A DNA stretch of 64,000 nt from a virus. How positions within the stretch are numbered: the stretch's first letter is position 1; each line of letters starts with the position of its first letter. A program made the position numbers and the translations under genes. The notes beneath the pieces were generated by a model that saw nothing but the letters and a program-made list of their open reading frames with translations, made no database searches and had not been told where the DNA came from. Below are positions 31,917-38,507 of this stretch, piece after piece. The stretch lies in IMG/VR virus record IMGVR_UViG_3300025137_004926, one strand, 5' to 3'.

Positions 31917-32372
31917 ATGGCAAACTTTAAACATCACATAAGATTAATGATGAAAGAAGAATGGAATAAACACGATATTAAAGGTGTTATTACTGTTCTT
32001 AAAAAGGCTATTGCCAATATATTTGAGCCAAAAGAAGATGGCACCGCAGTAGTATATCATATGATGGATGATTTTCATGTATATGATTTTCGTATGAATA
32101 GGGCAGTAACAGAAGCAGAAGCAGAAGTGGTGTTAAAGTTGTTACAAAACTGGACTGACAAAGACTTTACTATGGAAATTACTACTAGTGAACAGTTTGA
32201 TATTCCAGAGGGTGAGACCGAAATAGATTTATCTTCAATACGACATAATAGATGGGTATCTAGTCGTGTTGATGATGGTTGGAGATATGGTCTGCAATTT
32301 AATGAAACTGAGAAAACTGATCCCAGATTACGACCGTACCACGAACTAACTGAAAAGTTGAAAAATCTATGA
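31917..32372 (+). CDS. RyR-domain protein
   Basis: C-terminal HNRW..R..DGWRYG....EKTDPRLRPYHELTE, the RyR repeat signature. Confidence 0.8.
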   Translation: MANFKHHIRLMMKEEWNKHDIKGVITVLKKAIANIFEPKEDGTAVVYHMMDDFHVYDFRMNRAVTEAEAEVVLKLLQNWTDKDFTMEITTSEQFDIPEGETEIDLSSIRHNRWVSSRVDDGWRYGLQFNETEKTDPRLRPYHELTEKLKNL

Positions 32373-32380
32373 TTTTCGAC

Positions 32381-32409
32381 TTGACTTTAGAGTGAAAATG
32401 ATATATTAT
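32381..32409 (+). promoter_or_regulatory. sigma70-type promoter for hscB-iscA-nitroreductase-erpA-acp-motor operon
   Basis: TTGACT-N17-TATTAT. Confidence 0.65.
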
Positions 32410-32429
32410 TAAAGAATAGGTATATAAAA

Positions 32430-32969
32430 ATGTCTGGAATAAAAAGAATATATGGTCTTGAAGAAAAGAACTACTTTAAGTTCTTTGGTATTGATGAAAA
32501 GCAAGGGATAAGTGGGCGTAGTCTTACGACACACTATAAAAAAATTCTAACTATCCTTAAGAAGGACACTTCATTCACAGGTCAAGACAGATTAGCATTT
32601 GCAAATAGGGCTTTCGAAACCCTTGCAGATCCTATTGCCCGTGCAAGATATATACTTGGACTAAAAGGTCATGAGAATGATTTTAGAGACGGTGTTAGAC
32701 CTGATGATATTCTTTTTATTAATCAACTAAAACATCAATTAGAAGAACAACTTACTGTAGAAGACATAACACAATACATTGATGAATTGAAGGACCAAAC
32801 ACAGTTCATTAAAGACCAAATAGAACAAAGTATTGATACATATCAGAATTACAAAACTGCTAGTGGATTATTGAATAGATTTTATGAAATATCAGAAATT
32901 CACCAAGAAGCAAAACAAAAACAAGAAAAGATTCAAGAGGGGATAACCTATGTTGTATTTAACAGATAA
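32430..32969 (+). CDS. hscB: HscB-like Fe-S co-chaperone lacking the HPD motif
   Basis: NYFKFFGI start, ANRAFETLADPIARARYILGLKG matches HscB (INxAYxTLxxPxxRAxYLL), helical C-domain; YHPD replaced by LKKD. Confidence 0.75.
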   Translation: MSGIKRIYGLEEKNYFKFFGIDEKQGISGRSLTTHYKKILTILKKDTSFTGQDRLAFANRAFETLADPIARARYILGLKGHENDFRDGVRPDDILFINQLKHQLEEQLTVEDITQYIDELKDQTQFIKDQIEQSIDTYQNYKTASGLLNRFYEISEIHQEAKQKQEKIQEGITYVVFNR

Positions 32970-33279
32970 CTCTACAGCAAGAATTAAACAATGGTTGTCT
33001 CAGAACCCAAAACAAAAAGTGAGATTAAGTATAGATGTTGCCGGTTGTACTGGCTTCATGTACGAAGTTAAACTTGATGACAAATTCAACATAGAAGATG
33101 ACTTTGCAATTAAGTATAGTGACTTTGACATTCTCGTAGAGCATAAATATTTTCACACTATTGACGGAGCAACATTAGATTATATCACTGATCCTAAGAG
33201 TATGAGTTCGCATTTCGAACTTCAAAATAATCCAAATGAAAAAGCACGTTGCGGATGTGGAGAGAGTTTTACGGTATGA
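32950..33279 (+). CDS. iscA: A-type Fe-S carrier (IscA/SufA family)
   Basis: GCTGFMY and NPN....CGCGESF motifs. Confidence 0.88.
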   Translation: MLYLTDNSTARIKQWLSQNPKQKVRLSIDVAGCTGFMYEVKLDDKFNIEDDFAIKYSDFDILVEHKYFHTIDGATLDYITDPKSMSSHFELQNNPNEKARCGCGESFTV

Positions 33280-33998
33280 ATGAAAGAATGAAAAGTGAGA
33301 AACATGCGATAAATCAAGCACGTAGATGCCAAAGAAATTGGGACCTTTCTAAAGAAGTAGATGAGGATCACATAGACCATTGGATTTACCTAGCAACTAC
33401 ATCACCATCAAAACAAGATGAGAGTTTTTTTGATTTATACGTTGTTACTGACAGAACAAAATTAGATTATCTCTACAAGGAACATTCGTGGGGCTTCACA
33501 ATGTTACCTGGTATGAAAGATTGGGTCGGAAGAAACCCACAAATGGGAGCAAACTGTTTGTTTGTTTTCAATAGAAAGATGAACGAAGAAGAAATTCGTA
33601 ATAACGAAAAAGATGGAAGCGTAAGAGATCCAAATGCGGCAAGTAGATGGGATAATGCGTTTACATCAATTGGTATAGCAAGTGGCATTGTAGCCTTTAG
33701 TGCAAATATGATGGGCTATGTTACTGGCTATGGAAAGAATTTTGGTTACATTGAAGAACCAAAGCACAGTCAGGATGTTTGGGGTGAAGTTCTCGGCATT
33801 AAGAAAGAAGATAACAACTTGACATATAGTTTGGGAATTGGTTACCCAGATGAAAGCCTTCAATGGTATCAAAGTAAAGATAACAACGAATACCTAACAG
33901 GAGGTCCTGTTAATTATTCAATAGAGTCTACTGACACTGATTTAAAGTATTCAACATATTCTAAATTAGCCAGAGATATAAAGGTGTGGCGAGTATGA
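33276..33998 (+). CDS. nitroreductase-family protein
   Basis: [28 protein letters not shown] motifs; ATGA-coupled start. Confidence 0.75.
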
Positions 33999-34318
33999 TT
34001 TTTACAGAAAAAGCGGCTACGAGAGTAGAAGAAATTATCATGGAACAAGGCGAAACCAACGATACAGCATTAAGAGTGTTTGTTGAAGGTGGCGGGTGCC
34101 ATGGTTTTAGTTACGGTTTTGGTTTTGAAAAAGACCTTAAGGATGATGATAGTGTCTATGAAACTAATGGCGTAAAGTTAGTAGTAGATAGTATGTCAAT
34201 TATGTATCTAGCAGATGCAAAAGTAGATTATATCTCTAGCCTACAAGGCGACAGATTTGTAATCGATAATCCGGAAGCACAAACTACATGTGGATGTGGT
34301 AGTAGTTTCTCAGTGTAA
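33995..34318 (+). CDS. erpA: A-type Fe-S carrier ErpA
   Basis: [46 protein letters not shown]. Confidence 0.9.
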
Positions 34319-34344
34319 TCAACCAGAGGACGAAAGAGAAGATA

Positions 34345-34584
34345 ATGGAAATAAAAGATAAAGTGTATGAAATAACTGCACGAAAAATGAAACGACAGGT
34401 CTCTGACTTGAATGATGATACCAATCTAAAGAAAGATTTGGGTGCTGATAGTATCGATACAGTTGAAATTGTATTTGAAGTAGAAGAATTTTATAAAATT
34501 GCTATTCCAGATGAATATGCAGAAAAGATACATACTATCGGTGATGCAGTCAAGTGCGTAGAGGACATGTTTAATAATCAATAG
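34345..34584 (+). CDS. acpP: acyl carrier protein
   Basis: DLGADSIDTVE phosphopantetheine-attachment motif; IPDE.AEKI.T. Confidence 0.92.
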   Translation: MEIKDKVYEITARKMKRQVSDLNDDTNLKKDLGADSIDTVEIVFEVEEFYKIAIPDEYAEKIHTIGDAVKCVEDMFNNQ

Positions 34585-34596
34585 GAAAAATAGATT

Positions 34597-35049
34597 ATGT
34601 CGAAAACTCTAAGGTGGTGGTTGTTCTTTTGTATATCACTAACAGTCATGGGAATAGGTTATTATTTCGGACTGTTTAATGAATTATATGAAAAGGATGT
34701 AACTAAGATTAGCTTTGGTATTATACTCTTGTATATATTTACAAGTTTATATATCGGTAAGTTAACGATGGATTATAAGGAAGGTGAAGATATCGAGGCA
34801 GGTTTGGGCGTCGGTTGGTTCATATCAGAAAGTATGTTGGCGTTAGGTATGATAGGTACTGTAGCAGGATTTATTCTGATGTTAGGTTCTAGTTTTGAAG
34901 GATTGGATGTAGAAGATACAGCAAGTCTTAAATCAACACTTACTGCAATGGCATTAGGTATGAGTACTGCGTTATACACGACACTTACCGGTCTTATATT
35001 CAGTCAGTTTACTAAGATACAGTTAGTCAACCTTGAGAGTCGTGACTAA
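34597..35049 (+). CDS. MotA/TolQ/ExbB-family proton channel subunit
   Basis: Four TMs; LGMIGTVAGF and GMSTALYTTLTGL motifs. Confidence 0.85.
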   Translation: MSKTLRWWLFFCISLTVMGIGYYFGLFNELYEKDVTKISFGIILLYIFTSLYIGKLTMDYKEGEDIEAGLGVGWFISESMLALGMIGTVAGFILMLGSSFEGLDVEDTASLKSTLTAMALGMSTALYTTLTGLIFSQFTKIQLVNLESRD

Positions 35050-35684
35050 TGAACAGAGGCAAGTACAAAAGCACAGTAGGATTTACAGACTTATTATTCA
35101 ACTTATTAGTAGGGTTTGTATTTCTATTCATCATTGCTTTTATTTTAATCAATCCAATAACAAAGAAAGCAGATGTACCTAAAAAAGCAGAGTACATGAT
35201 TGTTATGGAATGGCCTACAGAAGTATCAGATGATATTGACTTATGGGTCAAAGATCCTGAAGGTAATACAGTTTCTTTTGTAAAGAAAGAAAACGGTTAT
35301 ATGAATCTTGAAAAAGATGATTTGGGGCACTCCAATGATATGACTGTAGATGAGTATGGTAATAAAAAGATTATCTATATCAATAGAGAGGTAATAACAT
35401 TACGTGGTACTTTAAAAGGACAATACCAAGTAGCGGCTCATGTATACGCAATGCGACCATGGCAAGCAAAAAAGAATATTGATGTAAAGGATTTGATAAT
35501 TAAGGTAAAAATTATTAAAATAAATCCTTATAGAGAAATGTACATAGGTGATACAAATTATTCATTAAAAGGACAAGAACTATCATTAGTTAACTTTTGG
35601 CTAGACAAAGATGGGAATTTTGTTAAATACAATACGTTAGATAATAATATTATAACGAGAAAAGCAAGAAACGGCGGGCTTTAA
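35049..35684 (+). CDS. MotB/ExbD/TolR-like partner (TM with Asp plus periplasmic domain)
   Basis: GFTDLLFNLLVGFVFLF single TM with conserved Asp; periplasmic DIDLWVKDP domain. Confidence 0.7.
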   Translation: MNRGKYKSTVGFTDLLFNLLVGFVFLFIIAFILINPITKKADVPKKAEYMIVMEWPTEVSDDIDLWVKDPEGNTVSFVKKENGYMNLEKDDLGHSNDMTVDEYGNKKIIYINREVITLRGTLKGQYQVAAHVYAMRPWQAKKNIDVKDLIIKVKIIKINPYREMYIGDTNYSLKGQELSLVNFWLDKDGNFVKYNTLDNNIITRKARNGGL

Positions 35685-35708
35685 TCCGCACATATATGGA
35701 GACGTTAA

Positions 35709-36395
35709 ATGTTGTATTCAGTAGAGTTAGCGCCATTATTCATTTCACTGTTCTTTTTAGCATGTGTTGTACTTTGGTTCGCAATAAAAAATCATAGAAA
35801 CGCATTACTATTAGGTTTAGTTATACCTTTAACACTGGCGACTGTAGTTATTAGTTATATGTCAGTAGACAGGATATTAGGTTATCCTATCAATGCAACA
35901 ATTAAAGCAGATTCAGTTTATATATCTCATATAGAGTCACTTGATGGCGAGAGTATATATGTATGGGTAGTAGAACCAGGAAGTGCTAAACCTCGTGCAG
36001 TAAGTATAGCAAATACAAAAAACAATAAAAAACAAATGCAAGATGCAAAAGATAAATCTAAAGAAGGTATTAAGCAACAAATGTCACCAGTATCTAAAAT
36101 TCTAAATAAAGAAGAAATGAAAGGTAGAGGTATGACAGCAGGTGGAGAGTATGCTACATATGATTTTAGAATAGGTGGCGGAAGTCTAAAAGATATTAAT
36201 CCTAGATTAGGTTTACCTTCAGAACAAGATCCTGATGAAGAACAATCTCCTCAAGCTAACCCACCTAGTATAAGCCATATGGACCTAGAGAATGCCGAAG
36301 ATGTTGTAATGACTCAAACAGTTGTTCCTTATGAAGAATTGCCTGATATGGAAGATGCGTCAAATCATACAGTGGATGAGAATACTGACTTTTAG
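35709..36395 (+). CDS. membrane protein, third gene of motor cassette
   Basis: Two N-terminal TMs, soluble domain, acidic Pro-rich tail. Confidence 0.75.
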   Translation: MLYSVELAPLFISLFFLACVVLWFAIKNHRNALLLGLVIPLTLATVVISYMSVDRILGYPINATIKADSVYISHIESLDGESIYVWVVEPGSAKPRAVSIANTKNNKKQMQDAKDKSKEGIKQQMSPVSKILNKEEMKGRGMTAGGEYATYDFRIGGGSLKDINPRLGLPSEQDPDEEQSPQANPPSISHMDLENAEDVVMTQTVVPYEELPDMEDASNHTVDENTDF

Positions 36396-36925: not shown

Positions 36926-37001
<76 letters not shown>

Positions 37002-37018
37002 TACAGAAAGGTAATAAA

Positions 37019-37234
37019 ATGAAGCCAGGCGAAGCAATTATGATAGCCGCAAGGAAACAAGCGGAGGGAGAAATAGCAATCCACCTAGCAAATATTCAGG
37101 TCTATCAAACAATGCCTGCAGGTATCGGAGAACACTCAGATGTTACCGAAGCAGTTATTGAAGAACTTAATAAGCTGGCGGCCGCACACGACCGTCTTGA
37201 AATGCTCAAAGAGTATTTCGAAAAAGCTGAATAA
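37019..37234 (+). CDS. small helical phage protein
   Basis: AAAGG RBS; start after tRNA-Thr; PAGIGEHSD motif. Confidence 0.75.
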   Translation: MKPGEAIMIAARKQAEGEIAIHLANIQVYQTMPAGIGEHSDVTEAVIEELNKLAAAHDRLEMLKEYFEKAE

Positions 37235-37243
37235 TAAAATTTA

Positions 37244-37328
37244 GCCCATGTGGTGAAATTGGTAGACACGCAGGTTTTAGGTACCTGTGCTTCACGGCGT
37301 GGGGGTTCAAGTCCCTCCATGGGCACCA
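37244..37328 (+). tRNA. tRNA-Leu(TAG)
   Basis: GCCCATG/CATGGGC; CAGGT-TT-TAG-GT-ACCTG; long variable arm; CCA. Confidence 0.95.
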
Positions 37329-37359
37329 TCTATTTAAACTTAATACAAGGAATAACAGA

Positions 37360-37791
37360 ATGAAATTAACGTATATCGTTACACTCGCTAGTAGCCTCTT
37401 AATTGGATCGTTTGCTTATGCAGAAGACATGACTATTGAAATGTTAAACAAACGTGACGATGGAGCAAAGATGGTTTATAGCGAAGACATTGCACGTATT
37501 GACGTGGGCGATACAATTACTTGGGTACCAACATCTAAAGGACATAATGTACATTTTATTGCAGGTCCAGATGGTTGGGATAAACCAAAGAAGTCAAAGA
37601 ACAACAAAGAGGTTGCTCTAACATTCGACACGCCAGGCATTTATTTGTATCAATGCACACCACATGCAAGTATGGGTATGATTGCACTTATAGTTGTAGG
37701 TGATGATACCTCTAACCTAGATGCATTAAAGAAAGCAAAAGTACGTGGTAAATCGAAAAAGAAACTTAAAGGTCTAATGCAGGATCTTTAA
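37360..37791 (+). CDS. pseudoazurin (type 1 blue copper protein)
   Basis: Signal peptide; IEMLNK, KGHNV, YQCTPHASMGMIALIVVGD (His, Cys, His, Met ligands). Confidence 0.9.
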   Translation: MKLTYIVTLASSLLIGSFAYAEDMTIEMLNKRDDGAKMVYSEDIARIDVGDTITWVPTSKGHNVHFIAGPDGWDKPKKSKNNKEVALTFDTPGIYLYQCTPHASMGMIALIVVGDDTSNLDALKKAKVRGKSKKKLKGLMQDL

Positions 37792-38210
37792 TGAACTATT
37801 TTAAAAACATAAGCGAAAAACTACCGGACTTCTGTTTATCACATTGGTTGTACAGAATTCCTTTGGCCATTGTTTTTATTCAACAAGGACTAAGTAAGTT
37901 TCCAGTATCCGTAGAAGATGCTGAAAGTTTTGGTCTGCCATATTTGGTTTGGTGGGTTGTCTCTTATGGTGAACTAGGCGCAGGTTTAGGACTCATTGTA
38001 GGAGGCATATTCCACACACAAAAAATGCCACATTGGATAGGTGACATTTTTACACGTTTCTCTGGAATTACAATCTGTTGTATAATGACAGGTGTTATCT
38101 GGGTAGGCGAACCAGAAAGTCTATTAGACGTAATCTTATATGACAATCTACACGTATTTTTATGGGTAGGTGGTTTGTTTTTTGCATTACGAGGTAATAG
38201 GGCTAAATAA
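37791..38210 (+). CDS. DoxX-family membrane protein
   Basis: RIPLAIVFIQQGLSK, GELGAGLGL, four TMs. Confidence 0.8.
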   Translation: MNYFKNISEKLPDFCLSHWLYRIPLAIVFIQQGLSKFPVSVEDAESFGLPYLVWWVVSYGELGAGLGLIVGGIFHTQKMPHWIGDIFTRFSGITICCIMTGVIWVGEPESLLDVILYDNLHVFLWVGGLFFALRGNRAK

Positions 38211-38216
38211 GGATGT

Positions 38217-38507
38217 ATGGCAAGAGTTGGAAGAAAACGGGTCCTGCAATGGATCAAAGAAGATTACGCTACTAACCCTGTAAGATTTACTACAGAGGTT
38301 TGTGGGATGACCTTAAACTTAATGGCCGCAATAATACTAATGTGGTATAGCCCAAATCCTCCAATGTTTTGGGCTTACATTTTTTTCATACTAGCTAGTG
38401 GATTATTAATGGTGGCGGCTTTCAGCCGTAAATCATTTGGATTTACTTTTATGTATATCGTTTATTTGATGATAGATGGTATAGGTTTTTTGAAAACTTT
38501 ACTTTAA
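38217..38507 (+). CDS. small three-TM membrane protein
   Basis: Three hydrophobic helices; AAGGA RBS. Confidence 0.7.
   Translation: MARVGRKRVLQWIKEDYATNPVRFTTEVCGMTLNLMAAIILMWYSPNPPMFWAYIFFILASGLLMVAAFSRKSFGFTFMYIVYLMIDGIGFLKTLL

Follow-up and report, generated by a model that had tools for sequence, protein, structure and literature searches.

Among the described systems closest to the one reported here are ExbB-ExbD-TonB, TolQ-TolR-TolA and the flagellar stators MotAB and PomAB. ExbB and TolQ have three transmembrane (TM) segments and a large cytoplasmic domain, whereas MotA and PomA span the membrane four times and have their N-terminus in the cytoplasm (N-in). The cytoplasmic domain of MotA and ExbB lies between TM segments, at the TM2-TM3 site, and in MotA it forms a loop of ~100 residues with the torque-generating domain. 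TonB and TolA consist of a single N-terminal TM segment with a SHLS/His motif, a spacer and a TonB_C or TolA C-terminal domain. In a viral stretch of 64,000 nucleotides of AT-rich phage DNA (IMGVR_UViG_3300025137_004926; the whole stretch is called the window below) three adjacent inner-membrane genes, g1, g2 and g3 (Table 1), resemble the Ton and Tol systems by a TM core of the PF01618 type, an N-in helix with an Asp residue and a membrane-anchored periplasmic third protein. The best reading is that they form a new branch of the superfamily of 5:2 ion motors, which has novel partner domains and occurs in phages as a minimised version.

By its sequence, g1 belongs to the MotA/ExbB family. It matched the Pfam model MotA_ExbB (PF01618) with 31.1 bits against a cut-off of 22.9 (E 2.2e-7, residues 64-136), and its relatives in three jumbo phage genomes scored 29.6-32.6 bits against the same model. 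Four hydrophobic segments were detected, which the positive-inside rule orients N-in, as in MotA and PomA. MotA was also the best match among solved structures, the g1 profile aligning weakly to the core formed by TM3 and TM4 in the MotA structures 8gqy and 6ykm (GMIGT..G, GM..AL.TTL.G). The motifs GxxGT..G and A..TT..G of the last two TM helices are made up of G84, G87, T88, G91, A125, T128, T129 and G132, each of them retained by at least 95 of the 98 unique relatives from phages and chromosomes. TM2 and TM3 are only ~14 residues apart, so that g1 has neither the loop of MotA nor the cytoplasmic domain of ExbB and TolQ. To our knowledge, this protein of 150 residues is the smallest A subunit.

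The product of g2 is composed of a basic N-terminus, one TM helix (residues 16-34, N-in), a short conserved Lys-rich linker and an all-beta domain. Asp14 lies in the motif GFTDLLF at the cytoplasmic end of the helix, as in MotB, ExbD and TolR, and none of the 91 unique relatives from phages and chromosomes lacks it; W55, D62, D64, D90, D91, G93 and E114 of the ectodomain are likewise kept in all 91. An AlphaFold2 model of g2 (predicted local distance difference test score, pLDDT, 80.9) has an ectodomain without helices of four or more residues. Its best fold match was TerD (2qz7_B; Z 9.0, root mean square deviation (rmsd) 3.7, 131 aligned residues), followed by a second TerD structure (2kxt; Z 8.2, rmsd 3.7, 134 aligned), while the next fold reached Z 6.0; in Foldseek, ranks 2-5 were TerD chains. 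As modelled, the ectodomain has the form of a beta-sandwich that resembles TerD. Searches of g2 against the Pfam, NCBIfam, PADLOC and PHROG families gave nothing at E<=0.1, and thus no OmpA or ExbD signature, and ExbD/TolR chains were not among the fold matches listed for the model, although absence from this list is not exclusion. On sequence grounds g2 is therefore called "B-like" for its position, topology and Asp, without detectable homology to B subunits. It further differs from MotB and PomB in lacking an OmpA-type peptidoglycan-binding domain, and the locus differs from MotAB and PomAB in having a third subunit and no flagellar context.

The TerD family (PF02342) and the g2 ectodomain are both rich in conserved Asp residues. 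TerD proteins are soluble, cytoplasmic and Ca2+-binding, whereas g2 is membrane-anchored and projects into the periplasm; its acid-rich sandwich, judged from the model, probably binds Ca2+ as well. With the TerD model nothing was found in five genomes carrying g2 homologs. The nearest named Atlas cluster of g2 was DUF2135/PPC at 0.82, which is a lead only. A match of the g2 strand DDvDlWVkdPxG to a "virion structural protein" chain (11pb_C, DDVDIYVKGPNG) was at chance level (E 0.44) and probably reflects a common edge motif of beta-sandwiches.

A different way to read g1 and g2 would be as a non-rotary device, that is a gated ion channel, a Ca2+-responsive channel or an assembly factor which shares only the TM3-TM4 hairpin with MotA/ExbB. 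This would agree with an A subunit without a cytoplasmic or large periplasmic output domain and with the acidic beta-sandwich of g2, which suggests metal binding. However, the Asp and Thr residues of the 5:2 mechanism are invariant in the trio, and the characterised A subunits that are paired with an Asp-bearing single-TM partner are all 5:2 motors (PMC9389320; PMC12204202). We therefore give this possibility little weight. For motors of the superfamily an unrelated head is not without parallel, as TolQ-like pentamers with non-TolR, Asp-bearing "transpore helix" (TPH) partners carrying vWA heads have been predicted (Mol Biol Evol 2025, PMC12204202). Like the trio, this system combines a TolQ-like A subunit with an unrelated periplasmic head on an Asp-bearing helix and has no assigned function; it differs by its vWA head and heterologous pairs, where the trio has a TerD-like head and a distinct two-TM third protein. 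That paper describes neither the trio nor phage copies of its motors.

This third protein, g3, has two TM helices (hairpin 8-57) joined by KNHRN. Because the short N-terminus contains no basic residue and the KNHRN loop connects the two helices, its topology is N-out/C-out, which places the following domain, like that of g2, in the periplasm. The conserved part of this domain comprises ~100 residues (LGYP...H...W...PR.Y.IP.T..N...AK...G.PQ...YDF...K) with the element order strand-strand-strand-helix-strand-strand. In an AlphaFold2 model of g3 (pLDDT 76.2; tail <60), this order, together with weak matches to toxin B-subunit/Mop-like barrels, suggests a small OB-like barrel, a resemblance that we do not claim as an assignment. 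Across 89 relatives only G58, P60, A113 and G120 are conserved, and no TM His was found. In contrast to TonB and TolA, g3 has a TM hairpin and no SHLS/His motif, and it matched no TonB or TolA domain. The tail (residues ~166-228) is predicted to be disordered and contains 17 D/E, one K/R and seven Pro among its last 63 residues; in the alignment it is limited to a subset of phages and lies outside the conserved core. No named Atlas cluster was close to g3. Two T4-like contigs, L053 and L062, carry g1 and g2 without g3. Their g2 proteins are 267-270 residues long and have an acidic C-terminal extension of their own, indicating that the acidic tail moves between subunits.

The stop codon of g1 and the start codon of g2 share the sequence TAATG, and g3 starts 24 nucleotides past g2, preceded by a GGAGA ribosome-binding site. 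A first-pass annotation of this DNA had described a compact four-TM protein of the MotA/TolQ/ExbB type that is translationally coupled to a single-TM protein with a conserved Asp. Both descriptions hold, as the Pfam cut-off is passed, the channel motifs are kept and the reading frames of g1 and g2 overlap; all three reading frames were confirmed at the coordinates given. Its impression that the ectodomain of g2 looks like neither an OmpA-type nor an ExbD domain is supported by the sequence searches, and the TerD-like fold can now be added. It had also noted a two-TM third protein with an acidic, Pro-rich tail; the TM helices and the tail were found, but the tail is not a general trait of g3.

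To determine how widespread this arrangement is, 99 loci with a g2 relative were fetched, comprising IMG/VR contigs, Rhizobium phages, SAR116 genomes and a few contigs of metagenome-assembled genomes. In 95 of these viral or related loci the genes follow each other as g1-g2-g3, overlapping or abutting, which is far beyond chance. The g2 family comprises 1,859 clusters at 50% identity (E<=0.001), and the trio is kept in hundreds of phages. A g2 protein identical to that of the window is encoded on a 296-kb contig and relatives on IMG/VR genomes of 316-343 kb that are 91-100% complete; the window stems from a marine phage of roughly 300 kb. Among named cultured phages the trio occurs only in Rhizobium phages, among them T4-like Pootjesviridae (e.g. 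P10VF, RHph_N34) and 68-kb phages (e.g. RHph_N3_13). A search at the DNA level with 2.4 kb against 50,697 phage records gave no match, as did tblastn of g1 against phage records, while g2 and g3 matched Rhizobium phages only. No PHROGs family was found for g1, g2 or g3. In the Rhizobium phages the trio is located among replication and late-sigma genes, and all three genes are named "hypothetical protein".

The first-pass annotation had called the combination undescribed. This agrees with our results: every public name was "hypothetical protein" and no paper describing the trio was found in the literature. The roles that it had put forward (superinfection exclusion, uptake, proton motive force (PMF) control, lysis timing, interference with Ton, Tol or Zorya) were guesses, and in the neighbourhood survey no lysis, defence or receptor gene was consistently adjacent. 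Phage membrane modules of similar size often have roles in lysis or exclusion, such as T4 Imm and Sp or the holin-antiholin systems, and the trio could accordingly be a complex that senses or dissipates the PMF and thereby times lysis or blocks DNA entry. Against this, no recurrent endolysin, holin or spanin gene was detected in 40 representative viral loci, the trio of the Rhizobium phages lies among replication and late-sigma genes, and no longer forms with a fused g3 were seen among proteins of 400-2000 residues (270-399 residues were not covered). Since the chromosomal housekeeping copies described below also favour a cellular function, we consider such a module highly improbable.

Homologous trios were detected on bacterial chromosomes. 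A profile search of whole genomes detected one copy each in 51 of the 151 SAR116-order genomes, in 52 of the 401 genomes sampled from the class Alphaproteobacteria (13%, about one in eight) and, at the level of the phylum, in 13 of 401. All of 20 chromosomal loci inspected with 9-kb flanks contained the ordered trio, with g3 below the threshold in one (19/20). In SAR116 it is flanked by genes for an EamA transporter, anthranilate synthase, PanE and an old yellow enzyme, and elsewhere by SpoT/RelA, CtaA, an FtsX-type permease, a phosphoribosyltransferase and pyrroloquinoline quinone (PQQ) dehydrogenases, among others; no phage genes were found. A prophage origin of the chromosomal copies was rejected on account of these housekeeping flanks. 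The reading of the first-pass annotation as a phage motor can therefore not be maintained as it stands, since the trio is not specific to phages, and the phage form is a minimised derivative. The genomes with a trio also keep one to four canonical ExbD/TolR genes, which makes the trio an additional system.

Two features distinguish the cellular version. Most chromosomal g1 proteins have an insert of 40-75 residues between TM2 and TM3, which the phage proteins do not have, those of the three near-complete jumbo genomes included. Further, in six of eight loci of the closer of two chromosomal clades, g3 is followed on the same strand by a fourth gene for a lipoprotein of ~262 residues with the lipobox LSGC, LTGC or LPAC, for which neither a Pfam family nor a PDB sequence match was found. 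Just as Tol has Pal, the chromosomal trio thus adds a lipoprotein. The gene was absent from the window, from the viral loci and from three jumbo genomes that are 91-100% complete. An APH-family kinase gene follows the lipoprotein gene in two chromosomal loci. In at least 13 of the 51 positive SAR116-order assemblies the contig begins right where g1 starts, ~0.5 kb upstream of g2, which suggests a repeat or a strain-variable junction just upstream of the SAR116 trio. Genes for PQQ-dependent dehydrogenases (PF01011), one of them with a cytochrome c domain, lie 1-5 kb from the trio in four of the 20 loci (L115, L121, L123, L124), and CtaA (heme A synthase) is encoded directly upstream of it in L118 and L119.

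A maximum-likelihood tree was calculated from 73 dereplicated g2 sequences, with a midpoint root for drawing only. The distant chromosomal clade split from all other sequences, and all viral copies, marine and Rhizobium alike, formed one group beside the closer chromosomal clade. A SAR116 chromosomal copy was nested within a viral subclade (support 99/90). The simplest reading of this tree would be that phages made a single old capture, kept it for a long time in phages of very different types and gave it back to a host chromosome at least once.

The nested SAR116 copy points to exchange between phage and host and could also be taken to support an interference device, in which minimised g1 and g2 poison a motor of the host (its own trio, Tol, Ton or a Zorya-type complex) by entering into mixed complexes with it or by acting as decoys. 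In the phage form the regulatory cytoplasmic loop is indeed missing. In addition, NCBIfam and PADLOC gave for g1 only sub-threshold matches to ZorA, PomA and TolQ, all limited to the TM core, and the best of them were ZorA models (residues ~38-143). These reached 17-23 bits against a cut-off of 500, however, and cover nothing but the shared TM core. ZorAB of Zorya is a non-flagellar member of the superfamily to which g1 belongs, but Zorya has a long cytoplasmic ZorA tail, a peptidoglycan-binding ZorB and ZorC/D/E effectors, none of which is present in the trio. The trio has no defence-island context, on chromosomes it lies outside defence islands, g2 and g3 had no PADLOC match, and no effector-like neighbour was found in the window or in the viral loci. 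As a decoy would moreover need no three co-conserved genes with an invariant Asp and a Thr ring, interference appears very unlikely to us.

In the window the trio is embedded in a long series of host-like genes on the same strand (Table 1), of which the nitroreductase-like gene scored 22.3 bits, slightly below the family cut-off. A scan of the window for promoters and terminators revealed no T4-type late box near the trio and no convincing promoter or terminator between the trio and its neighbours; sigma-70-like sites occurred at chance level (30 found, 28.5 expected). The run of Fe-S, nitroreductase-like, acyl carrier protein, pseudoazurin and DoxX genes, like the homologous chromosomal trios in the presumed host class, would fit a plain auxiliary gene set: the phage copy would replace the host trio during host shutdown and serve the same housekeeping process of the envelope or periplasm. 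Such replacement has a parallel in psbA of cyanophages. But the phage copies form one old divergent group instead of repeated recent captures, they lack the cytoplasmic loop of g1 and the lipoprotein partner, and with the trio in ~13% of the sampled Alphaproteobacteria many hosts may lack the pathway. For these reasons we hold simple replacement to be unlikely.

In one viral subclade the trio is directly preceded by genes for a ClpP-family/NfeD-like protease (PF00574) and an uncharacterised protein of 309 residues and directly followed by an inner-membrane transporter of the SbmA/BacA family (PF05992). A phage-borne SbmA/BacA is unusual in itself. Considered side by side, the neighbours in the different settings (protease and SbmA; PQQ dehydrogenases and CtaA; Fe-S, acyl carrier and periplasmic redox proteins) suggest a common membrane or periplasm theme.

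Table 1. Positions of the trio, of its neighbours and of selected genes in other loci (L numbers denote individual loci).
Feature	Sequence	Position	Strand	Length	Description
g1	window	34597-35049	+	150 residues	minimal MotA/ExbB-family A-type subunit, 4 TM
g2	window	35049-35684	+	211 residues	candidate B-type subunit, single TM, periplasmic beta-sandwich
g3	window	35709-36395	+	228 residues	third subunit, TM hairpin, periplasmic domain, acidic Pro-rich tail
Upstream neighbours	window	31917-34584	+		HscB-like, two IscA/HesB-type Fe-S proteins, nitroreductase-like, acyl carrier protein
Downstream neighbours	window	36926-38507			tRNA-Thr(TGT), tRNA-Leu(TAG), pseudoazurin-type copper protein, DoxX, small membrane protein
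g1 and g2 without g3	L053	1612-2921			T4-like contig
Lipoprotein gene (example)	L116	10539-11333			chromosomal locus
Lipoprotein gene (example)	L117	10192-10983			chromosomal locus
Lipoprotein gene (example)	L119	11328-12116			chromosomal locus
Protease/SbmA subclade	L056	1234-1890			viral locus
Protease/SbmA subclade	L060	6424-7506			viral locus
Protease/SbmA subclade, equivalents	L052, L054, L066, L067, L068, L070, L073, L074				viral loci

Taken together, we favour, with slightly more confidence than doubt, the view that the phage carries in the trio a minimised copy of an inner-membrane machine of Alphaproteobacteria, itself uncharacterised and belonging to the MotA/ExbB ("5:2") superfamily, and that an unregulated motor core is installed by it. 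In such a machine g1 would form the outer ring around a g2 dimer, and the Gly and Thr motifs of TM3 and TM4 would line the ion path. The central helix would come from g2, with Asp14 being protonated and deprotonated during inward ion flow and thereby driving a relative movement. As only ~13 conserved residues separate the TM helix from the sandwich, the TerD-like domain would be held just above the membrane. The TM hairpin of g3 may dock on the ring, and its small periplasmic domain may receive or direct the work; g3 would then fill the role that TonB and TolA have in ExbBD and TolQR, without being related to them. In the cellular version the chromosomal lipoprotein would be the likely target or partner. 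Because the phage form has lost both the cytoplasmic loop of g1 and the lipoprotein gene, an unregulated motor core in the host inner membrane is the favoured form, and it might keep, boost or redirect a periplasmic or envelope process for the benefit of the phage.

Several observations weigh against this interpretation. Modelling covered single chains, the 5:2 arrangement being a proposal, and a g1 that has no cytoplasmic domain may behave differently from known stators. When g2 was compared by hhalign with a profile built from 14 genuine ExbD/TolR sequences of trio-bearing genomes, the probability was 2.6%; the match covered the TM region only, and the Asp was out of register. The MotB/OmpA domain (PF00691) was not matched in Pfam, NCBIfam or PADLOC searches of g2. 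TerD was not recovered by sequence either, as there was no Pfam match and at E<=10 the g2 profile retrieved no TerD chain from the PDB. For g3 neither a Pfam match, a PHROG family nor a TonB/TolA motif or domain was detected; with the whole model as query, fold searches picked up the helical hairpin alone, and Foldseek returned nothing below E 0.26. Further, g3 is absent in three of the 99 loci, the branch joining the phage copies has a support of only 94/53 in a midpoint-rooted tree, and the genes around the chromosomal trios differ between loci without indicating one particular pathway.

A bolder form of the proposal, which we regard as possible although distinctly less probable, is that the trio stands for a functionally new class of periplasmic machines of Alphaproteobacteria that are driven by ions, in which a ring of minimal size is combined with a TerD-like axle that binds Ca2+ and with a third subunit of a novel kind, and that the deregulated miniature long carried by the phages of these hosts serves them as a weapon. 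After early installation it would act mechanically on the host envelope by remodelling or gating it, for instance to keep out rival phages or to disable a host response that is based in the envelope.

Known from flagellar stators, Ton, Tol, gliding and Zorya, the 5:2 ion motors form a small group of machines through which energy of the inner membrane reaches the cell envelope. The trio would add a widespread branch to this group, with a tiny A subunit and two partner domains unlike any described. Its carriage by viruses is routine and extends from 68-kb Rhizobium phages to marine jumbo phages of 340 kb. The role of a phage motor is directly testable, since the Rhizobium phages are available in culture and their hosts lend themselves to genetics. 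Moreover, a minimal version of this kind would be attractive for studies of the structure and mechanism by which ion flow is converted into force.

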